Source of the DNA: Candidatus Epulonipiscium fishelsonii
GTDB lineage: Bacteria > Bacillota > Clostridia > Lachnospirales > Cellulosilyticaceae
Assembly (NCBI GenBank): GCA_001983455.1
Contig: LJDB01000010.1
Location: 11,399 to 75,398 of the forward strand
Length of the DNA: 64,000 nt
Direction: 5' to 3'
Below are positions 4,328 to 21,856 of this stretch, in pieces. A program made the position numbers and the translations under genes. Positions within the stretch are counted from its first letter, which is position 1. The number at the start of each line of letters is the position of its first letter. The notes under the pieces were generated by a model, which worked only from the letters and a program-made list of their open reading frames with translations, was not told the DNA's origin and did no database searches.

Positions 4328-5152
4328 ATGAATGTGTTAAAAATATTGAATAACAATGCTATTTTAGCAGTGGATAGCAACGCACTGGAATATATATTTT
4401 TAGGAAATGGTATAGGGTTTAAAAATAAAGCTAATACTCCTGTTGTTCAGGTAGATAATTTTAAAAAATATAAACTAGAAAATGATATTAAGTATAATGA
4501 AGTAGTAGAAAGAGTAGATGTTAAATATTTAGAAATTACTGCACAAATATTAGAACTAGTGAAACAAACATTTAAAGAAGTTGATACGACTGTTTTGCTT
4601 CCACTTGCTGACCATATAGCTTTTGCAGTAGAACGTATAAAAAAAGATATGGAAATTATTAATCCATTTACTCAAGACATTAAATTGTTGTTTCCACAAG
4701 AGTTTTTAATAGCAAAAAAGAGTGCTGAACTTATTGAACAGACTTTTAAAGTAGATATAAATGAAGATGAAATATCATATATTACTTTACATATAACTAG
4801 CGCTATATCTTCAAAGCATGTCAGCCTGTCTTTAAATATGGTTGAAGTAATCAAACAATTTATTTCCCAACTAGAGACAGAATATAATATGAATATTAAC
4901 TATAATTCTCTTTCTTATCATCGTCTTATAACTCATATTAAATATTTAGTCTCTCGAATGTATCATAAAGAAAAACTAAATTTAGACATGAACGACTATA
5001 CTAGAAGCAATTTTCCATTTTCATATGGTAAAGCTACAGAACTAGTGAACCTATTAGAAAAAACTTTAGGTGAACCTGTTATGGAACTAGAGGTTGGATA
5101 TTTAGCTATTAATATAGAAAAATTAATACAATCCACCTTAAATTGCTCGTGA
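4328..5152 (+). CDS. glcT: BglG/LicT/GlcT-family PRD transcriptional antiterminator
   Basis: 274 aa. N-terminal CAT-type motif MNVLKILNNNAILAV followed by two PRD-length regions. RBS AAGGAGG. Sits beside a RAT-controlled PTS gene. Confidence 0.8.
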   Translation: MNVLKILNNNAILAVDSNALEYIFLGNGIGFKNKANTPVVQVDNFKKYKLENDIKYNEVVERVDVKYLEITAQILELVKQTFKEVDTTVLLPLADHIAFAVERIKKDMEIINPFTQDIKLLFPQEFLIAKKSAELIEQTFKVDINEDEISYITLHITSAISSKHVSLSLNMVEVIKQFISQLETEYNMNINYNSLSYHRLITHIKYLVSRMYHKEKLNLDMNDYTRSNFPFSYGKATELVNLLEKTLGEPVMELEVGYLAINIEKLIQSTLNCS

Positions 5153-5156
5153 AAAA

Positions 5157-5183
5157 CCCCACCACCACGTAGTGGTGATGAGG
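5157..5183. terminator. Hairpin between convergent glcT and PTS EIIC genes
   Basis: CCCCACCACCAC / GTGGTGATGAGGG forms a ~12-bp GC-rich stem with two mismatches. Confidence 0.45.
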
Positions 5184-5208
5184 GTCTTATAAATAACGAA
5201 TAGTTGGT

Positions 5209-6330
5209 TTACACTATTGCTTTTCTTTTTACTTTTATTATAAACATTAATACAAATGCTACTAGTGCTCCAACTCCAAAATATGCAAACCATAATGCTG
5301 GATTAGTTGTAACAAGCCCTGTAATCAATGAGCCTCCAGCTCCAACATTAATGCCAATTTGTGACCAAAGAATTAATGCCCCTGCAATTCCACCGCCAAG
5401 CATTTGAGCAGGAATAATTGAAATTGGGTCACGCAATGCAAATGGAATAACTTGTTCTCCAATTCCACCAAGACCAGACAAAATGATAGCAGGAATTGCT
5501 GCGTCTTTTTCGTCTTGAGTAAAATATTTTGGTGCAACCATTGCAAGTATCCCAACGGTAATTCCAGGAATAATTTTTGCTGCTGTAAATGCGGCATAAT
5601 ACGTATAAAAACCGTCTGACCAAAGACCAACACAGAAAATATATGCAATTTTGTTAATTGGTCCACCAAAGTCAGTACAAGCCATCGCACCAATTATAAA
5701 TCCAAGTGGAATAGTCAGATTATTATCAGCCATCCAAGTTAATCCTGCAGTTATTCCATTGTTTAGTGTAGCAATGGATGGGCCAACAAACCAAATCATA
5801 GGAACAGCAACAATAAATCCAGCAATTAACGGTGTTACAAGTAATATATTTAAAGATTCGTATTTCTTTGTAAAGGGGAGTTTTTTTAGTGCCTGAACGG
5901 TAAATCCTGCTAAAATACCTGCAAATAAAGCACCCAAAAATCCTGAATCTTGAACAGCTATATGTCCAAAAGCCCCACCTTTAGCCAACATACCTCCAAT
6001 AAACCCTGGAGCAAGCCCAGCTTTGCCGGCAATTCCTTGTGATATAAAAGCTGCTAATACTGGTGATAATAACCCTAGTGCAAGAAATGCAACTTGTCGC
6101 ATTGTATATAAAAATTCTACTAGTCCATTTGCAGTAACTTCTTCAAGACTACCACGCAAATTATATCCTAGAATTTCCATTCCAATTATATCAACTATTG
6201 CAAGAAAAATACCACCAGTAATAATTACAGGAATAATGTGAGAGATGCCGTTCATTATTCCTTTATACGTTGTTCCCAATGCCTCTTGTATAGGTGTTTT
6301 TTCTTCTAATTGAATTTTTTTTCCCGCCAT
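5209..6330 (-). CDS. PTS fructose-family EIIC component
   Basis: 373 aa polytopic membrane protein with Fru-family EIIC-like glycine-rich motifs. RBS GAGGGGGG. Same operon as the EIIB and EIIA genes. Confidence 0.8.
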   Translation of the reverse strand: MAGKKIQLEEKTPIQEALGTTYKGIMNGISHIIPVIITGGIFLAIVDIIGMEILGYNLRGSLEEVTANGLVEFLYTMRQVAFLALGLLSPVLAAFISQGIAGKAGLAPGFIGGMLAKGGAFGHIAVQDSGFLGALFAGILAGFTVQALKKLPFTKKYESLNILLVTPLIAGFIVAVPMIWFVGPSIATLNNGITAGLTWMADNNLTIPLGFIIGAMACTDFGGPINKIAYIFCVGLWSDGFYTYYAAFTAAKIIPGITVGILAMVAPKYFTQDEKDAAIPAIILSGLGGIGEQVIPFALRDPISIIPAQMLGGGIAGALILWSQIGINVGAGGSLITGLVTTNPALWFAYFGVGALVAFVLMFIIKVKRKAIV

Positions 6331-11839: not shown

Positions 11840-13018
11840 TTATGATTTACTAGCTAGTATCTTTGATACAAAGCGTTCTATTCTAACTAGTGCTTCCTTT
11901 AATTCAGCTATGGAATAAGCATAAGAACATCTTATATACCCTTCGCCTGAGCTCCCAAAAGCATTTCCTGGTACAACTGCTACCTTTTCTTCCTTTAATA
12001 ATGCCTCACAAAATTCTTCACTAGTCATACCTGTTTCCTTAATAGAAGGAAATACATAAAATGCCCCTTTAGGTTCAAAACAAGACAACCCCATTTTTTT
12101 AAATCCATCCAACATAAGTTTTCGTCTACCATCATATGCTTTTCTCATCTCACGAACATCACTATCTCCGTTTTTCATAGCAGATATTGCCCCGTATTGA
12201 CTAGTCGTTGGAGCACACATAAGAACATATTGATGCATTTTTGTCATAGCCTGAATTACAGCAGGAGGCCCCAGTGCATACCCAAGCCTCCATCCTGTCA
12301 TAGCATATGCCTTAGAAAATCCACTAAGTATAATTGTTCGCTCATACATACCTTCTATATTTGCAATGGATACATGGTTTATACCATAGGTAAGTTCGGC
12401 GTATATTTCATCTGAAAGCACTATTAAATCATTCTTAATTATAACCTTAGCAATTTTCTCTAGTTCTTCTCTTTCCATTATTGCCCCAGTCGGATTGTTT
12501 GGATATGGCAAAATTAGCAACTTAGATTTATCAGTAATAGCGTTTTCTATCTCGTCAGCTGTCAATTTAAATTGATTTTCTGCTTTTGTGGCAATAGGTA
12601 CAGGAACCCCACCAGCAAATATTGTGCACGGCATATATGCTACAAAAGAAGGCTCTGGTATTAAAACTTCTTCGCCAGCTTCTAGTAATGTTCGTAAAGA
12701 AACGTCTATCCCTTCGCTTCCTCCAACAGTTACTAGAGTTTCTGTTTTTGGGTTGTATGTTAGGTCAAATCGTCTTTTCATATATTTGCATATCTCTTCT
12801 CTAAGAGTCAGCAACCCTGCATTTGCAGAGTAAACAGTTTTTCCTTGTTCCAAAGAATATATTGCTTCTTCTCTTACATGCCAAGGAGTGTCAAAATCAG
12901 GCTCCCCCACACCTAGAGATATAGCATCTCCCATTTCGCTGGCTACATCAAAAAACTTTCTAATTCCAGATGGTGGCATGTTTTTCACTTTGAGTGATAT
13001 TTTATCTTGTATATTCAT
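11840..13018 (-). CDS. Class I/II PLP-dependent aminotransferase
   Basis: 392 aa. PLP-lysine motif SGFSKAYAMTGWRLGY. N-terminal MPPSGIRKFFD is typical of AspC/PatA-like enzymes. Confidence 0.85.
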   Translation of the reverse strand: MNIQDKISLKVKNMPPSGIRKFFDVASEMGDAISLGVGEPDFDTPWHVREEAIYSLEQGKTVYSANAGLLTLREEICKYMKRRFDLTYNPKTETLVTVGGSEGIDVSLRTLLEAGEEVLIPEPSFVAYMPCTIFAGGVPVPIATKAENQFKLTADEIENAITDKSKLLILPYPNNPTGAIMEREELEKIAKVIIKNDLIVLSDEIYAELTYGINHVSIANIEGMYERTIILSGFSKAYAMTGWRLGYALGPPAVIQAMTKMHQYVLMCAPTTSQYGAISAMKNGDSDVREMRKAYDGRRKLMLDGFKKMGLSCFEPKGAFYVFPSIKETGMTSEEFCEALLKEEKVAVVPGNAFGSSGEGYIRCSYAYSIAELKEALVRIERFVSKILASKS

Positions 13019-13500
13019 GGTGATATTATCATCCTTTCATCTTTTTTTTGTTTTTCAAATATAACCTTATGCTCTTTGTACTTTTTAAGAACAAAGTGAG
13101 TTCCAGTACTAAGCACATTGTCAAGTGGAGCAAGTTTTTGACCAACAAATAGTGCAACCTCTTTCATGCTTTTACCTTCTACAACTACTGTTAAATCAAA
13201 TCCTCCAGACATAAGATAAACGGATGTTACTTCTTTAAACATATATATACGTTTGGCAATTTTGTCAAAGCCTTCGCCCCTTTGAGGAGTTACTTTCACT
13301 TCAATTAACGCTGTTACAACTTCTTTATCCTCTACTTCATCCCAATTAATTAAGGTTTTGTAGCCACAAATTATTTGTTCATCTTCTAGTTGTTGTACGA
13401 TGGATGCCACTTCTTCAATAGGTATCCCTATCATAATAGATATGTCTTCAAAAGTGTACTGGCTATTTTCCTCTAGTAATTCTAAAATTTTGTTTCTCAT
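13015..13500 (-). CDS. Lrp/AsnC-family transcriptional regulator
   Basis: 161 aa. N-terminal HTH region plus an AsnC-type ligand domain. 4-nt ATGA overlap with the aminotransferase gene. Confidence 0.8.
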   Translation of the reverse strand: MRNKILELLEENSQYTFEDISIMIGIPIEEVASIVQQLEDEQIICGYKTLINWDEVEDKEVVTALIEVKVTPQRGEGFDKIAKRIYMFKEVTSVYLMSGGFDLTVVVEGKSMKEVALFVGQKLAPLDNVLSTGTHFVLKKYKEHKVIFEKQKKDERMIISP

Positions 13501-13546
13501 AATTATGTTCCACCTTTTTTATAATTTTTTAGCTTATTAAAATTAT

Positions 13547-13624
13547 ATTACTATAGCCTTGTATTTTAAACGTGTATTTTTTACCAGTTTAAATTTTTAA
13601 ATTTTGATATACTCTAACTATTAA
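13547..13624. repeat. 78-nt direct repeat, left copy
   Basis: ATTACTATAGCCTTGTATTTTAAACGTGTATTTTTTACCAGTTTAAATTTTTAAATTTTGATATACTCTAACTATTAA matches 14831-14908 with 4 mismatches. A 25-nt partial third copy lies at 13779-13803. Confidence 0.9.
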
Positions 13625-13640
13625 ACTTTAACTTTTATTA

Positions 13641-13671
13641 CACAAAAATAGGGTGGATTTGCACCCACCCT
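13641..13671 (-). terminator. Hairpin plus U run after a short ORF remnant
   Basis: AGGGTGG / CCACCCT stem, followed on the minus strand by ATTTTTGTG. Directly follows a start-less reading frame ending ...FGNEMRPNRQWVFIAWM* (stop 13675-13677). Confidence 0.35.
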
Positions 13672-13960
13672 ACATCACATCCAAGCGATAAAAACCCATT
13701 GTCTATTTGGACGCATTTCATTTCCAAAAGTTCCTTGTTCTTCTGCATCCACCAAAAGAGTATTAAGCCTAAATCTAAGTATTTTTTACCAATTTAAATT
13801 TTAAAACAATAAAATATTTGACTAGTAGGGCTGATAAATTTAAAAAATAACTCTACATCCTTCACTAGTGTATTCCTCAAAATTCCAGATACATATAAAT
13901 GCTTATCTTTTTTTAATAATATTTATTAGTATAATGAATATTTATGCAAAGAATAACTCT

Positions 13961-14380
13961 GTTATCTGTGATAAAGGGTTTAGAATTAAAGGATTTAGGA
14001 GTAAAGGGAGTAAATCTGTTATACGTGATAAGGAGAAAAGGCTACAGATCTTTTCTTTTTACATGTAAGATATAAATTGTGGTTAAAAAGTTTATTATAC
14101 GTGATAAAGGATTTGGGAGTAAAGGGAGTAAATCTAGTATACGTGATAAAGGATTTGGGAGTAAAGGGAGTAAATTTGTTATACGTGATAAGGAGAAAAA
14201 GCTACAGGTCTTTTCTTTTTATACGTGATAAGGAGAAAAGGCTACAGGTCTTTTCTTTTTACATGTAAGATATGAATTGTGGTTAACAGGTCTTTTCTTT
14301 TTACATGTAAGATATGAATTGTGGTTAAAAAGTTTATTATACGTGATAAAGGATTTGGGAGTAAAGGGATAAATCAAGCT
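13961..14380. repeat. Mosaic tandem array of ~41-nt modules, each beginning TTATACGTGATAA
   Basis: Module A (GGATTTGGGAGTAAAGGGAGTAAATCT) x4. Module B (GGAGAAAAGGCTACAGGTCTTTTCTTTTT) x3 plus a partial. Module C (ACATGTAAGATATGAATTGTGGTTAA) x3. Read directly from the sequence. Confidence 0.9.
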
Positions 14381-14430
14381 AAGGCTAAGACCGTAGTTTT
14401 CACTTTAGTTTAAAACATATTTAATTTTTT

Positions 14431-14547
14431 TAATTCATGATAACGGAAAAAACGTTTTGAGTTTTTTTGGTTATTCGTGATAATAGAAAAAGCGTTTTGA
14501 GTTTTTTTGTTATTCGTGACAATAGAAAAAGCATTTTGAGTTTTTTT
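14431..14547. repeat. Three tandem ~39-nt repeats
   Basis: Three consecutive units of TTATTCGTGATAATAGAAAAAGCGTTTTGAGTTTTTTTG with few substitutions. Confidence 0.9.
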
Positions 14548-14550
14548 ATT

Positions 14551-14670
14551 ATGGGTTGTTAACTAGCTGTTACTTATTTTTTCACGTCTGCTCTACTACT
14601 AATTTTTTCACCTATTGGCTACTTATTTTTCGTGACTACTCTGCTACTTGTTTTTTTCACATGGGTTAAC
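14551..14670. repeat. Four ~25-nt repeats bracketed by ATGGGTT(GT)TAAC
   Basis: Unit GCT.TACT..TTTTTTCAC occurs four times between ATGGGTTGTTAAC (14551) and ATGGGTTAAC (14661). Confidence 0.8.
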
Positions 14671-14830
14671 TCTTAAAGTATATACCTATGTCTCACAAAA
14701 TACAATTGGCAAAATATCCTAATATACTTCTTATCACTAGTGAATTGTGTCCAATATAATTAACATTACTCCAAAATACATAATTATACATAATTGTGTA
14801 TTTTGTACAAATAAGTAATTCTAAAATTGT

Positions 14831-14908
14831 ATTACTATAACCTTGTATTTTAAACGTGTATTTTTTACCAGTTTAAATTTTTACATTTTGATATATACTA
14901 ACTATTAA
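14831..14908. repeat. 78-nt direct repeat, right copy (also the likely promoter region of the ABC operon)
   Basis: 74/78 identical to 13547-13624. Contains TTTACA (14879-14884) and lies ~65 nt upstream of the ABC ATPase start. Confidence 0.9.
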
Positions 14909-14973
14909 GTATTAATATATTTTTATAATTTATAAGGGATTTAATATTTAATGAAAGAGAGGTATTGTTATCT

Positions 14974-15678
14974 ATGGAATACATCTTAACTACAAACAAT
15001 TTGTGCAAAAACTTTAAAAAACAAAAAGCGAATGATAATATTAATATTTCCATTCGCAAAAATAGTATTTATGGTTTGCTTGGGCCAAATGGTGCGGGCA
15101 AATCCACATTGCTTAAAATGATTACGGGAATGTTAAATCCCACTTCTGGCCAGATTTATTTTAATGAAAAACCTTTAGAGCGTAGCGATTTAGTAAATAT
15201 AGGCTCACTTATTGAAAGTCCAGCCATCTATGAAAACCTAACAGCTCATGAAAACTTAAAGGTCAGAGCGTTGTTGTATAATTTACCAAATAGCCGTATT
15301 GACGAAGTATTAGAAATTGTGAATTTAAAAAATACTGGTAAGAAAAAATCTGGGCAGTTTTCTTTGGGTATGAAACAACGACTTGGGATTGCGATGGCAC
15401 TTTTAAACAACCCTAAACTACTTATTTTAGATGAACCAACCAATGGACTTGACCCGCTTGGCATACAAGATTTGCGAGAACTTATTTTGTCATTTCCTAA
15501 AAAAGCTATCACAGTCATTTTGTCATCTCATATCTTATCCGAGGTGGAGCAAATAGCTGAAGATATTGGAATTATTGCAAATGGCAAATTGGGGTATCAG
15601 GAGCACATATCTCATGATGTAGACCTTGAAAGTCTATTTATGGATGTAGTAAGAAAGTCAGGTGGTTATGATGTATAG
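14974..15678 (+). CDS. ABC transporter ATP-binding protein, lantibiotic-protection (LanF) type
   Basis: Walker A GPNGAGKST, signature SLGMKQRLGIA, Walker B LLILDEP. ATG at 14974 preferred over the TTG at 14965. Confidence 0.8.
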   Translation: MEYILTTNNLCKNFKKQKANDNINISIRKNSIYGLLGPNGAGKSTLLKMITGMLNPTSGQIYFNEKPLERSDLVNIGSLIESPAIYENLTAHENLKVRALLYNLPNSRIDEVLEIVNLKNTGKKKSGQFSLGMKQRLGIAMALLNNPKLLILDEPTNGLDPLGIQDLRELILSFPKKAITVILSSHILSEVEQIAEDIGIIANGKLGYQEHISHDVDLESLFMDVVRKSGGYDV

Positions 15679-16393
15679 CTTAGTTAAATCTAATTTTATA
15701 AAACAAAGACGTACATTCTCTAAAAAACTTTTATTTATTGCACCTATAACACCAATGGTGCTTTCTGTTTTACTTTTGCAAGGAAATTATTTTATAGAAA
15801 ATTCATGTAATTGGTGGTATGCTTTTATACTTCCAGCATCAATATTTATAATTGTTGGCTTTAACATATCTAGGGAACGAAAGAAAAATCGTCACGGACT
15901 TTTTTCTATTTGTGCAGACAAAAGAAAACTATGGGTTTCAGCTGTTTTAACAAATACAATAAGTCTACTGATTTTAAACCTTGGTTTCTTTATTTGTATT
16001 ACGATATGTATTTATATTCTTGGAATAGCTGACTTAAGAGTAGGTAAAAATTTATTAGCTAGTTTTTTATTATTTATAACATTTTCATGGCAAATACCTT
16101 TATTTATGTTTATTGCTGAAAAGACAGGTGCGTTCGTGACTATTTTTATTGGGATGGTTCTTAATATGGTTGGCATTTTCTTTGCTCCAAGCAACTTATG
16201 GTACATTCCTTTTGCAATTCCATCACGACTTATGTGTCCTGTGATTGGTACTATGCCAAATGGGTTGCCTGTGGAACCAGATAGTATCCTTAACGATTCT
16301 TCAGTTGTGCTTATAGGAGTTGTAATTACAATAATATTATACTTCATTATAACAATTTTAACTACTTTGTGGTATAACAAATTGGAGGCTTAA
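15668..16393 (+). CDS. ABC-2 permease, LanE/MutE-like
   Basis: ~241 aa, six predicted TM helices. Overlaps the ATPase stop. First of two paralogous permeases in the F-E-G order. Confidence 0.6.
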   Translation: MMYSLVKSNFIKQRRTFSKKLLFIAPITPMVLSVLLLQGNYFIENSCNWWYAFILPASIFIIVGFNISRERKKNRHGLFSICADKRKLWVSAVLTNTISLLILNLGFFICITICIYILGIADLRVGKNLLASFLLFITFSWQIPLFMFIAEKTGAFVTIFIGMVLNMVGIFFAPSNLWYIPFAIPSRLMCPVIGTMPNGLPVEPDSILNDSSVVLIGVVITIILYFIITILTTLWYNKLEA

Positions 16394-16394
16394 T

Positions 16395-17129
16395 ATGAAA
16401 ACTAATATAAAATCTGAAATTTATAGGTTTATACATTCACCTTTACTACCACTACACATAATAGTTCCTATTTTAGGTTCATTTATATTTGTAGCTTATT
16501 TTGCTACATCCAATTGGAGTGAAGAAGGCAGTGTATCAGCTTTTATACAAGCTCTATCAGTAACATTTCCTGTGCTTATAGGAATAATTATGGGTTTGTC
16601 TTGTGATTTTGAGCAAAATGCTGGAGGGTTTCAGATAATGCTTACTACGAAAAGTTCAAAACTTGTACCACATATCAGCAAAATAATAGTTCTTCTTATT
16701 TTAGGTTTAATATCTGCAATTTTAGCGCTTGGCTTGTTTTATATAGGTTTTTATTTTTTTAATCACACAAGTTTTAGTGCTTGGTTTTTCATACAAACAG
16801 CAATTTTTATGTTTATAAGTATGATTCCACTATATCTTCTTTCATATGTAATAAGCTTTTTGTACGGCAAAGGCATGAGCATAAGTATTGGGATTGTAGG
16901 TGGAATGGTATCAGCACTACTTTTGACAGGTCTTGGTGACAATAATTGGTTTTATACTCCTTGGGGGCTTGCTGCTCGCTTGTCGTTATTCCCTTTTATA
17001 AGAGATGTTGAAAACAATACTAGTGAAATGAATTGGGGTATTATTTCGCTACTTATATTTACAGCGATACTAACCATCTTGTTCATAGTAATTTTCAGAA
17101 AATGGGAGGGCAAAAGAATAGAAGACTAG
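16395..17129 (+). CDS. ABC-2 permease, LanG/MutG-like
   Basis: 244 aa, six predicted TM helices. Starts 1 nt after the previous stop. Confidence 0.6.
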   Translation: MKTNIKSEIYRFIHSPLLPLHIIVPILGSFIFVAYFATSNWSEEGSVSAFIQALSVTFPVLIGIIMGLSCDFEQNAGGFQIMLTTKSSKLVPHISKIIVLLILGLISAILALGLFYIGFYFFNHTSFSAWFFIQTAIFMFISMIPLYLLSYVISFLYGKGMSISIGIVGGMVSALLLTGLGDNNWFYTPWGLAARLSLFPFIRDVENNTSEMNWGIISLLIFTAILTILFIVIFRKWEGKRIED

Positions 17130-17188: not shown

Positions 17189-19377
17189 TTAGTTATCTTG
17201 AGTGACAACTTCAATTTTTCTATATCTATCCATTCCAGTACCTGCTGGAATAAGTTTACCAATAATAACATTTTCTTTAAGACCAATTAGTGGGTCAACT
17301 TTTCCTTTAATAGCAGCCTCGGTAAGAACTCTAGTAGTTTCTTGGAAAGAAGCAGCTGATAGGAATGATTCTGTAGCAAGAGATGCTTTAGTTATACCTA
17401 GTAAAGTATGTTTTCCTTCAGCAGGTGCCATACCTTTTTCAATCATTTCTTCATTAATTTGATCAAAATCAAGTACATCCACTAAACTTCCAGGAAGTAA
17501 ATTTGTATCTCCATTTTCTTCAATCTTAACTTTTTTAAGCATTTGACGAACAATTACTTCAATGTGCTTGTCATTTATATCAACCCCTTGAAGTCGATAT
17601 ACTCGTTGCACTTCTTGCAACATATAATCTTGAACTCCTCTAATACCTTTAATTTTAAGAATGTCATGAGGATTTATACTACCTTCTGTAAGCTCATCTC
17701 CAGCTTTAATAAAGTCTCCATCCATAACTTTAATTCTTGAACCATAAGGAATAAGATAAACTCTTGAATCATCAAGGGTATTATTTGCAATAGTAATTTC
17801 ACGTTTTTTCTTAGCTTCAGTAATAGTTACATATCCTTCAATTTCTGTTATAATTGCAAGACCTTTAGGTTTACGAGCCTCAAATAACTCTTCGATACGT
17901 GGAAGCCCTTGCGTAATATCGTCTCCTGCAATACCACCCGTATGGAATGTACGCATTGTAAGCTGTGTTCCTGGCTCACCAATGGATTGAGCTGCAATAA
18001 TTCCAACAGATTCACCTTCACGAACTTCGTTTCCAGATGACATATTTGCACCGTAACATTTTACACAAACTCCAACTTTTGATCTGCAAGATAAAGCATT
18101 TCTAATCTTAACTGTTTCAATTCCAATTCCTTCAATATATTCAGCTATTTTAGGTGAAATCATTGTATCAACTGGAACAATTACTTCCCCTGTTTCAGGA
18201 TGCACTACTGCTTCTGCTGCAAATCTTCCAGAAAGACGCTCATTCAATGGTTCAATCATTTCTGTGCCGTCTTTTACAGCTTTAACCCACATTCCAGGAA
18301 TTTCGTTTTTAGTATTGTTGTGACAACAATCTTTTTCTCTTATTATAACGTCTTGAGAAACGTCAACTAGCCTACGAGTAAGATATCCTGAGTCAGCAGT
18401 TTTTAATGCAGTATCGGCCAAACCTTTACGAGCTCCATGGGCAGAGTTAAAGAACTCTAGTACAGTAAGTCCTTCACGGAAATTTGCCTTAATTGGAAGT
18501 TCTAGTGTTTTTCCAGTTGGAGAAGACATCAGTCCCCTCATTCCAGCAAGCTGTTTAATTTGGTTATTTGAACCACGGGCACCAGAGTGTGCCATCATAT
18601 AAATGTTGTTATATTTTCCAAGTCCAGACAATAACGCTTCAGTAATTTTATCATTTGCAATGTTCCATGCTTGAATAACTTTGGTATATCGTTCGTCATC
18701 AGTCATTAGTCCACGTCTAAATAATTTTGTTACTTTATCAATGGATTGTTCTGCTTCAAGTAAATACTCACCTTTTTTAGCTGGAATAACCATATCAGAA
18801 ACAGAAACTGTCAAAGCACCACGAGTGGAATATTCAAATCCTAGGTCTTTGATATTATCTAGTAATATAGCTGTTTTAGTAGCTCCATGTTCATTTATAC
18901 ATCTTTTAATAATTTTTCCTAGCTCTTTTTTGCCCACCAAGAAGTCTATTTCATATTTTCTTGCAGGTAATTCATCGTTTTTACGTCTTTCCTCATTTTC
19001 AGCATGTTCTTTAGCTCTGTCAACAAATCCTAAATCTTGAGGAATTCTTTCATTAAATATAATTCGTCCTACGGTAATTTCTTCTCTTTTATACACTTCA
19101 CCATTAATTGTTCTACGAACTTGAATTCTAGCATGCAGTGTAATTTCTTTGTTTGCATACGCAAGCATCGCTTCCATTTCACTTTTAAAACATTTGCCTT
19201 CTCCAATTTCGCCTTCTTTGTCAAGAGTCAAGTAATATGTTCCAAGAACCATATCTTGAGAAGGAACAGCAACAGGAGCTCCATCAGACGGTTTTAGCAA
19301 GTTGTTTGGTGCTAAAAGCAAAAATCTACATTCTGCTTGTGCTTCAACAGATAAAGGTACGTGCACTGCCATTTGAT
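17189..19377 (-). CDS. rpoC: RNA polymerase beta-prime subunit, exon 2 (begins AT CAA ATG GCA GTG CAC = (D)QMAVH)
   Basis: 729 codons of conserved beta-prime sequence (trigger loop and bridge helix regions). Joining to exon 1 restores NADFDGDQMAVH in frame. Confidence 0.9.
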
Positions 19378-19460
19378 ATATGGATAGGTAACCATTTGAA
19401 ATTATCTCCAGGTTTTCCCCCCATCAGAACCGTACATGAGACTTTCATCTCATACGGCTC
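19378..19460 (-). ncRNA. Group II intron domains V and VI
   Basis: GAGCCGUAUGAGAUGAAAGUCUCAUGUACGGUUC is a 34-nt domain V with the AGC triad and a GAAA tetraloop. AUGGGGGG pairs with CCU(A)UCCAU to give domain VI with a bulged branch-point A. Confidence 0.9.
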
Positions 19461-19481
19461 GCCAACAATAATATTAACTAT

Positions 19482-21333
19482 TTATATAGTATTAATTTCT
19501 AAGCTTTCCCTAAGTTTATTGATTTTTATAATTTGTTTGTTATCTAAGTTAAGCGTTTCCATATATTCTTTAATAGTATCAATATGTGTAGCATATAGTA
19601 ATTTATGAACATTTGTTGTTACCCACATAAGATTGCTGCACTCATTTCCTCCACCTTTAATACGAGGTTTGATATGATGGCATTCCATCATATGTTTATT
19701 AAGTGGTTCTTGCGTTATAGCACATTTCCCACGTTGCCCATAAATGAGTGCTAATTTGTTGTTCAGTAAATCTACACTGTCATCCCACTTGTTACGCATT
19801 ATGAATGTAATTAAGTGGTCATAACCTTTTATACTATTGTGTGTGTATTGTCTACCATTAGGTGTGTAATTACACATATTTTGGTTAAATACTTTCACTC
19901 TTGCATATCTTACCCCGTGAACAGGGAAAAGGGTTACTGATGCAACAGTTCTAATCTTACTATGATACTTTCCGTATATGGCTAAATATGCTTTACTTTT
20001 ATTAGGTTTATTACTTAGATGATTTCTCAATCTTATATCAAAGGATTTCATAACGACATGGTTAATTTCTGCCATATCCCTAGAAACTAGACTAGGGTAG
20101 CTGATTTGTAATATTGATGTACACCTAAAATCATTGAATTAAGTTTTTGCATCTGTTTTGGTGTAGTATCTTTTTGTACCTCTTTAATTTGATTTTTGAG
20201 GTCACAAATTACATTTTTCTTAGCCTTATCTGTCATTTGAGTTCTACATGTGTATTTACGATTTTTTGATTTACCACTATCACTGTATGCTTTAAGTTTG
20301 AAACCTAGAAATTCACTATGTTTCTTTCTTAAGTTTGTGATTTATCTTGACAGAGTTCTAGGTGCAATCTCTTATGCAACCAATTAGTAGTTCGTTTGTA
20401 AACGATACTTGCTGTTTTATGGTCTTTACAAAAGATTTTAAAGTCATCTGCATATCGTACTATCCACATTTCTTTCACTTCGGAATAATTCCTGAGTGAT
20501 GCATATTTGTTTGACTGGTCTATTCTACCATCTTCTCTAACTTGCTTGTAGTCATAATCGGTTTTAAAAGTCTCCCATTGGTCACTTACCCACCAATCCA
20601 ACTCATTAAGCACTACATTAGACAATAATGGAGAGATAATACCTCCTTGTAGTGTACCTTTTGTTTGTATACCTACTCCAACAACTTCACTTTTAAGAAT
20701 TTTGCTAATAACTGTAATTAGGTTCTTATCTTGTATGCCCAGATTCCATAGTTGTTTAAGCAACTTTCCATGATTAATGTTGTCAAAGAAATCTTTAATG
20801 TCTATATCCACAACATAATGTAGTTTGCTTAAATTGACTAATGATTGGCATCTAGCTAGTGCATGGCTAGTTCCTCTGTTAGGACGAAAACCATAGCTAT
20901 GTGGGTGAAATTGTGCCTCAAGTATAGGTTCGATAACTTGCTTAATACATTGTTGTACGATTCTATCTTGTACGCATGGTATTCCTAGCGGTCTATTCTT
21001 ACCATTTGATTTAGGTATCTCAACTCTCCTCACCTTTTTAGGTCTGTAATCTCTAATAAGAGATCTTATAAATTTCACAAATCTGTCGGTCGGGAAATTG
21101 TCATAATATTTCAAAGTGACTTTATCCACTCCACATGTTTCGCTTCCTTTATTTCCTTTTAGGTTACGGTAAGCAAGTAGGATATTTCTTTCATCTTCGA
21201 TATATTTTATTAAATCGTTGAATTTGAATCCCTTTTTTGCTTTAGTGTACAATTCGTCAAATATGCTTTGCATTTCGTAGTACTCATTATTCCTTATCAA
21301 TTGTCTCTTTAGGGTTTGCCTATTCAAAGTCAA
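19482..21333 (-). pseudogene. Intron-encoded RT / maturase (domain X) / HNH protein, disrupted by two frameshifts
   Basis: Frame A 21333-20329 holds the RT domains (YADD) and a TTG start. Frame B ~20340-20087 reads TNLRKKHSEFLGFKL...GVHQYYKSATLV*. Frame C 20075-19482 holds the rest of X plus HNH (CHHIKPRIKGG...NLMWVTTNVH). Confidence 0.7.
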
Positions 21334-21811: not shown

Positions 21812-21856
21812 GCTTATTCGTGATAACGGATTTAGTCACGTTGTTTCTAAATCTGT
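21812..21856. repeat. Copy of the dispersed hairpin element inside the intron 5' region
   Basis: GCTTATTCGTGATA + ACGGATTTAG / TCACGTTGTTT / CTAAATCTGT. The first 23 nt are 22/23 identical to 40358-40380. Confidence 0.85.

Follow-up and report, generated by a model that had tools for sequence, protein, structure and literature searches.

A probable fossil of an old complex insertion between lrp and a LanFEG-type operon in Candidatus Epulonipiscium fishelsonii, built from a duplicated promoter region and a truncated dispersed element

In Candidatus Epulonipiscium fishelsonii, a gene for an Lrp-type regulator and an operon for a lantibiotic-protection transporter are separated by a spacer in which two long direct repeats enclose several different tandem arrays. 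How did this arrangement arise, and does it serve either neighbour? The original prediction, made on the window (the whole stretch of 64,000 nt that was analysed), likened it to an att-like or target duplication around a non-autonomous insertion, or to a duplicated promoter cassette. Here, G000 denotes this genome and G001 that of the sister species; copy A and copy B are the left and right repeats, and X1 is the segment 13641–13778. The locus is laid out as follows, with tandem arrays delimited by TRF.

11840–13018: aminotransferase gene (NF005816, 588 bits), overlapped by lrp, with which it forms the left-hand operon.
13015–13500, minus strand: lrp, Lrp/AsnC-family regulator gene (PF01037, 54 bits; PF13412).
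13538–13640, no strand assigned: copy A, the putative native lrp–LanFEG intergenic promoter region, collinear with the single copy in G001.
13641–13778, minus strand: X1, an orphan filler of 39% GC with an intrinsic-terminator-like hairpin and a 36-codon open frame.
13779–13806, no strand assigned: 28-nt fragment of the repeat (positions 37–64, 26/28) between X1 and the element.
13808–14821, plus strand: truncated copy of a dispersed non-coding terminal-inverted-repeat element (positions 117–1143 of a 1209-nt consensus).
13808–13956, plus strand: left module of the element, with ~25 copies elsewhere in the genome at 80–86% identity.
13972–14378, plus strand: internal minisatellites of 40–42-nt units containing TTATACGTGATAA; the unit sequence is copy-specific.
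14425–14552, plus strand: 39-nt unit repeated 3.3 times (TTATTCGTGATAATAGAAAAAGCGTTTTGAGTTTTTT), within the right module.
14540–14821, plus strand: right-module core, with four T-rich ~25-nt repeats between GTTAAC sites, then palindromes.
14571–14630: array of a 26-nt T-rich unit.
14822–14928, no strand assigned: copy B, directly upstream of the LanFEG operon.
14974–17129, plus strand: LanFEG-type lantibiotic-protection ABC transporter operon (ATPase 14974–15678; permeases 15662–16393 and 16395–17129).

The direct repeats were originally placed at 13547–13624 and 14831–14908, and these segments are indeed identical at 74 of 78 positions. Aligned without gaps, the repeat spans 13538–13631 and 14822–14915 (86/94 identical, 91%; longest identical run 43), and in the alignment with G001, with one small indel, it reaches ~13640 and ~14928, or ~100 nt. 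The start-to-start spacing of the two copies corresponds to an insert of 1,284 bp. A partial third copy had also been reported, and the 28-nt fragment at 13779–13806 bears this out. Numbered along the repeat and along the element consensus, the pieces follow one another in the order target(1–103), X1, target(37–64), element(117–1143), target(1–...). We likewise agree that no credible ORF lies between the repeats, as the ORFs in 13547–14908 are all ≤66 aa and are built of repeat units.

Both neighbours are readily identified. The transporter operon encodes an ATPase together with MutE-type and MutG-type permeases, which all score above the curated NCBIfam cut-offs (TIGR03740, 369 bits against 310; TIGR03732, 190 against 145; TIGR03733, 197 against 117). 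Each repeat copy carries promoter-like sites in both directions. In copy A, a minus-strand site (TTTAAA-17-TATAAT, 13570–13542) is placed to drive lrp and is conserved in G001, and a plus-strand site (TTTAAA-16-TACTCT), a weaker version of the transporter promoter-like site, points into the insert. In copy B, the plus-strand site reads TTTAAA-16-TATACT (14872–14899), and a minus-strand site of the lrp type (TTTAAA-17-TACAAT, 14854–14826) is aimed into the insert. No plus-strand terminator was found between the transporter-type site of copy A and the LanFEG operon. A transcript from the lrp-type promoter of copy B would run antisense through the element and end at the X1 terminator, before lrp. 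Since the shared promoter region is present in full in front of both lrp and the LanFEG operon, expression of either may have been left unaffected by the insertion; as a description of the outcome, therefore, ‘duplicated promoter cassette’ is apt. The retention of a promoter copy by both operons would also explain why the insertion was tolerated.

If the repeats result from an insertion, a relative might carry an empty site with a single copy, as the original prediction proposed to check. Of the 41 related genomes that were searched, just one, G001, represents a second species of the genus, and it does carry such a site: its locus reads lrp, one repeat copy, LanFEG operon. In that genome, C244:6081–6815 matches window positions 12900–13634 at 95% identity and C244:6719–7638 matches 14822–15700 at 93%; the two matches overlap on the single repeat copy, and the site is otherwise collinear. 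The difference between the two species is thus an insertion of 1,284 bp, together with a duplication of ~100 nt of the intergenic region. As G001 holds one copy at a collinear site, the repeat is the native intergenic sequence, read here as the divergent lrp/LanFEG promoter region. The other possibility raised, that the 78-mer is a common intergenic promoter repeat dispersed through the genome, does not stand: the 94-mer occurs only here in the 3.38-Mb genome, and the next-best matches are AT-rich chance matches of ≤44 nt.

A three-way comparison of the repeat copies revealed ~2 changes specific to copy A, ~8 specific to copy B and ~6 specific to G001. The single copy of G001 has none of the ~8 bases specific to copy B, which speaks against its being a simple A/B recombinant. 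Judged by divergence, the insertion is old, because there are 8 differences over the 94 aligned positions of copies A and B and because the element copy in the window, 77–89% identical to other copies, has diverged by at least 11% from each of them. By parsimony, the direction of change was probably gain in G000, not loss in G001 by recombination between the repeats; the comparison covered one sister species, and no outgroup shared the synteny.

What, then, was inserted? When the spacer was compared with the whole genome by blastn, 13808–14821 proved to belong to a dispersed family present at dozens of loci with 77–89% identity. The recurring parts are the left module (13808–13956) and a right module (~14385–14821), and many of them lie at contig ends. 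Complete copies are bounded by terminal inverted repeats, ACGTCTTGTGCTAGTTAA at the left end and, as its reverse complement, ACCATTTGTGCTAGTTAA at the right (15/18). We counted 35 left and 31 right element ends in G000, corresponding to ~35 copies; eight copies are complete within contigs and measure 1,057–1,594 bp. Exact target duplications of 6–7 bp flank three of the eight (AAATAGT, TATAAT and TTATTT), and their absence from the other complete copies is consistent with later exchange between copies. None of the eight contains an ORF of ≥70 aa; the longest open frame in a complete copy measures 52–84 aa, and no transposase gene lies inside. Of the 61 element ends that could be scored, 45 (74%) face gene starts. 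Three tandem arrays had been noted in the spacer. They are present, as the TRF calls confirm, but they did not originate at this locus: the dispersed element regularly contains them as internal modules.

The family was confined to the genus among the 47 genomes of the search set at the level of the family Cellulosilyticaceae. Its right-module core (~255 nt) recurs at 80–83% identity, ~40 times in G000 and at least 38 times in G001. The G001 cores each adjoin large minisatellites whose unit varies from copy to copy, and the element arrays there have units of 69–101 nt. Throughout both species, the core always adjoins fast-evolving minisatellites with copy-specific units. Long flanking repeats were sought around the G001 copies, and only internal minisatellites were found; clean empty sites in G001 for canonical copies were sought as well and none was recovered, the flanks lying on different contigs or being absent.

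Terminal inverted repeats, short target duplications and many transposase-less copies are the hallmarks of a MITE or other non-autonomous terminal-inverted-repeat transposon, and the family has all of them. Its complete copies exceed the miniature size of MITEs (usually < ~0.6 kb), and by size it is closer to a mobile insertion cassette. It is best described, from these sequence features, as a kilobase-size, non-autonomous, minisatellite-carrying terminal-inverted-repeat element. The 97%-complete draft yielded no cognate autonomous IS sharing these inverted repeats, and pairs of inverted-repeat cores within 6 kb of each other enclose non-coding copies only. A 3.4-kb inverted-repeat pair in contig C45 was considered as the autonomous parent and rejected: it encloses ordinary sporulation-type genes and a 50-bp mini-palindrome. 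Members of the IS982 family have ends beginning with 5′-AC and generate target duplications of 3–9 bp (ISfinder). The AC ends and 6–7-bp duplications of the element would fit this family, and this is only a lead. An IS982 transposase as parent was also rejected, the best hit scoring 49.9 bits against a cut-off of 130 and being an IS5-like gene with different inverted repeats; NF033520, the model for IS982-type DDE transposases, stayed below cut-off in both genomes of the genus.

We also asked whether the element might encode a structured RNA. A search of the window and of six complete copies yielded no Rfam match at E ≤ 1. When 16 right-module cores were folded jointly with RNAalifold, the result was −6.4 kcal/mol, with a covariation term of −0.16 and one compensatory pair, and so no conserved fold. 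The single-sequence z-score of the core on the plus strand (−3.6) is explained by DNA palindromes. Neither a match to a known family nor a conserved fold with covariation, the marks of a structured non-coding RNA gene, was therefore seen.

The copy in the window is atypical of this family. It lacks both ends, with ~113 nt gone on the left and ~64 nt on the right, both inverted repeats included, and it is flanked by the 100-nt repeats where an intact member would have 6–7-bp duplications. In flank-versus-flank alignments at 23 element loci, the score was 72 here and ≤14 at the 22 others; a long duplication is thus peculiar to this locus and does not characterize the family. The idea that the repeat is itself related to the element was rejected, since copies A and B, the G001 spacer and X1 align to the 1,209-nt consensus no better than shuffled sequences do. 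The joint between element and copy B shows an overlap of TAA. A 15-mer at this joint, AGTAATTCTAAAATT (14814–14828), is identical to lrp codons at 13475–13489, 48 nt to the left of copy A, and 11 of its 15 bases are also the element's own sequence. The joint may therefore have arisen at 11 nt of microhomology within lrp.

Between copy A and the 28-nt fragment lies X1, 138 nt at 39% GC, compared with 15–16% in the repeats and 33–35% in the neighbouring genes. It contains a minus-strand terminator-like hairpin (13673–13648) and, on the same strand, a 36-codon open frame (13678–13785) that ends 2 nt before the terminator. No source for X1 was found in its own genome by blastn or tblastn. The frame had no homologue in a six-frame search of 47 genomes of the family and 401 of the order, nor among 1.84 billion representative proteins; exact-match scans of genomic and metagenomic contigs for the terminator stem, and comparison of X1 with plasmids and phages, gave no match. 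The coding-like 39% GC is the one argument for reading X1 as the remnant of a gene, a reading that may hold but is so far unsupported.

Taking these observations together, we believe that the locus is probably the relic of a single old and complex insertion event in the divergent lrp/LanFEG promoter region, accompanied by a target duplication of ~100 nt. The three parts of the insert would be the orphan, coding-like X1 (138 nt), the 28-nt target fragment and 1,014 nt from the interior of the element; such a patchwork would be explained most simply by one replication or repair event in which the template was switched several times at microhomologies. We infer that microhomology-mediated template switching or illegitimate recombination produced it, and not the element's transposase or a site-specific recombinase. 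The duplication may at first have been longer, perhaps ~166 nt (~13475–13640), copy B later losing 55 nt by slippage between two TAAAATT repeats. A multi-step history, in which a canonical insertion was followed by duplication and deletions, could have led to the same end state, but it needs more steps than a single template-switching event. The original suggestion of a non-autonomous insertion holds in outline: the insert is absent from G001 and consists mostly of a multi-copy non-autonomous element.

An alternative that we consider unlikely starts from an ancestral minus-strand gene that lay between two promoter copies and was driven from copy B. The element would have inserted into it, deletions would have left at most its 36 last codons and the terminator, and G001 would have lost everything by recombination between the repeats. 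The coding-like composition of X1, its open frame just ahead of a correctly oriented terminator and the promoter-like site in copy B that aims at X1 would all fit such a history, and a segment flanked by 100-nt direct repeats is easily lost. Nevertheless, the X1 frame has no homologue in any of the searches, and the G001 copy is no A/B chimera, as the missing B-specific bases attest. This scheme also requires a prior, unexplained duplication of the promoter region and leaves the 28-nt scrap unaccounted for.

It is more doubtful still that the spacer is a functional non-coding locus, such as a regulatory or sponge RNA or an iteron-type platform regulating lrp or the LanFEG operon, for which the promoter duplication was selected as a driver. 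Its arrays are dense in repeated motifs (TTATWCGTGATAA has 67 occurrences genome-wide, with 1.2 expected), the right-module core has been kept in dozens of copies between the species, and the element ends tend to face gene starts; the BrickBuilt element, discussed below, carries bidirectional promoters (PMC4596501). Against this, the same modules occur at ~35 unrelated loci and are not specific to the lrp/LanFEG pair, the RNA searches gave neither an Rfam match nor a conserved, covarying fold for the core, and G001 manages without the insert. We presume that the locus has no dedicated function today.

Canonical transposition, with the repeats as the target-site duplication of a non-autonomous element, was part of the original prediction and now seems highly improbable. 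Most of the insert is indeed a copy of a mobile element, and target DNA repeated in direct orientation flanks it, as such a duplication would require, but the duplications of the family measure 6–7 bp, neither terminal inverted repeat survives in the window copy, the left repeat is kept apart from the element by unrelated DNA (138 nt) and the 28-nt scrap, and long duplications are absent from the 22 other loci aligned. Integration of a small integrative element by a site-specific, att-like route had been put forward too, and we find it scarcely credible. It would leave an insert between direct repeats and, in a relative, an unoccupied site with one copy, as seen here, but the insert is a truncated transposon-like repeat with no integrase, no other recombinase and no ORF of >66 aa, and the putative attL and attR are 91% identical (86/94) where near-100% would be expected and have no counterpart elsewhere in the genome. 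A chimeric join at a collapsed repeat is just as hard to credit, even in a 109-contig draft that breaks at many element copies, because the repeat copies differ at 8 positions and so are distinct loci, the passage from copy A into X1 is also found in an independent Logan contig (SRR4102196), and reads from a window copy only 77–89% identical to the others would not be confused with theirs.

The complex insertion that we favour resembles FoSTeS/MMBIR template switching and templated ‘filler’ insertions in being a patchwork of short pieces that re-uses its target (the 28-nt scrap), with duplicated sequence at the breakpoint and identities of 3–15 nt at the joints. It differs from those cases in that the mechanism is deduced here from the junction anatomy of a single old event.

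The element family has its own points of comparison. Mobile insertion cassettes, such as MIC231 of Bacillus cereus, are of kilobase size, carry IS-type inverted repeats, lack a transposase, are presumably mobilized in trans and make short target duplications. The element shares with them its size, its inverted-repeat bounds, the lack of a transposase and the short target duplications; unlike them, it carries no ORF, and the search of the 97%-complete draft yielded no cognate IS. The closest published analogue appears to be BrickBuilt of Porphyromonas gingivalis, a MITE that contains a minisatellite of 23-nt units and is present in 19 copies (Klein et al., 2015, PMC4596501). Like BrickBuilt, the element is non-coding, intergenic, taxon-restricted and multi-copy (~35 here); the two also share small inverted repeats at their ends, ‘leader’ and ‘tail’ modules and, inside, a tandem array of variable length (PMC4596501). 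In contrast to BrickBuilt, it is larger (1.06–1.6 kb), contains several unrelated arrays (26-, 39- and 40–42-nt units) in place of the single 23-nt unit, and has the ~255-nt core conserved between species. Closer to home, Ca. Epulopiscium viviparus has imperfect intergenic tandem-repeat blocks with 18- or 21-bp units, almost no mobile elements and a GC content of 38% (Sannino et al., 2023, PMC10756260). Those blocks, like the arrays here, are scattered, intergenic and built of units that differ from block to block (PMC10756260); the arrays here form part of an element that has a conserved core and is bounded by terminal inverted repeats, and at 31% GC the genome belongs to a different organism.

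The locus is a product of ordinary genome decay, not a new system. One decayed element copy and a duplicated promoter region jointly account for the 78-nt repeats, the ‘purine-rich modules’ and the 39-nt and T-rich arrays, and these arrays should not be taken for a locus-specific sRNA or iteron system. The locus also offers a well-resolved natural case of a long duplication (100–166 nt) arising, as we understand the mechanism, from a non-transposase insertion in a bacterium. The element family is the more notable result: a genus-restricted, kilobase-size, minisatellite-carrying non-coding element of this kind has apparently gone undescribed so far. It is improbable, in our estimation, that the element is more than selfish DNA and that its core serves as a cis-acting platform for a host protein, for example in chromosome organization or promoter insulation in a highly polyploid giant gut bacterium; if it did so, such a role would account for the orientation of 74% of element ends towards gene starts, and for how a copy without ends could be installed by recombination rather than transposition. 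A large part of the contig breaks in the draft can be put down to the ~35 element copies, and recognizing them will be useful for the assembly and annotation of these genomes.

The inverted-repeat core TTGTGCTAGTTAA is common to the dispersed, non-coding 1.1-kb element, present in about 35 copies in the genome of the window (G000), and to miniature palindromic elements of 50–130 bp, in that genome and in the sister species (G001). The latter are listed below, by contig (C) or by excerpted locus with its own coordinates (L).

Miniature palindromic elements carrying TTGTGCTAGTTAA
G000 C45:59700-59749 (L044 3900-3950), miniature palindromic element
G000 C75:4810-4911, miniature palindromic element
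G000 C24:19967-20097, miniature palindromic element
G001 L049 2771-2901, miniature palindromic element

An IS5-like transposase gene on the minus strand of G000 (C38:~4470-5250; L051 1430-2210) is broken: an N-terminal ORF of 111 aa lies in one frame and the DDE part in another. The inverted repeats of this transposase gene, GGGGCTTTCTTAAAA, bear no relation to those of the 1.1-kb element.

Among the other G000 copies of the 1.1-kb element, two have different left flanks and share the same right flank with the same 475-aa gene (C32:28002-29070 / C33 and C50:68695-69761), which could mean either that a segment was duplicated or that element copies recombined with each other. A complete copy is followed, about 110 nt beyond its right end, by two tRNA genes (C13:19324-19474; L029 2325-2475) in the same orientation. 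In the sister species, very large minisatellites adjoin the right-module core, the conserved part of the element, and their unit sequence differs in each copy (39 nt × about 23, 77 nt × 10, and 69/101-nt units).

Right-module core with adjoining minisatellite in G001
L049 1770-2690
L043 2310-3123
L039 292-1129

The 13-mer TTATWCGTGATAA occurs 67 times in G000, against 1.2 expected, with matches in the window at 14019-14483 and 21814-21826. It appears to be either the core of another dispersed element, smaller than the 1.1-kb one, or a binding site. Forty-eight of the 67 matches fall outside loci of the 1.1-kb element, one of them in the rpoC intron. The rpoC reading frame begins mid-protein at 19372, and an HNH-containing ORF comes after it (window 17189-20075).

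The genes for an Lrp-type regulator and an aminotransferase (window 11840-13500) share 4 nt and appear to form an operon of the alaR-alaT type, resembling AlaR/AlaT of B. subtilis. The aminotransferase scores 588 bits against NF005816, slightly under the cut-off of 620. Window 12900-15700, including the intergenic repeat (the lrp-LanFEG promoter region), is 93–95% identical to G001 C244, compared with 81–85% for the other flanks aligned between the two species (L030-L032, L049). The closer match here may mean that the two species exchanged this region recently, or only that it is strongly conserved.

Because the palindromic elements and the 1.1-kb element share TTGTGCTAGTTAA, several non-autonomous families may be mobilised by one and the same, as yet unseen, transposase.
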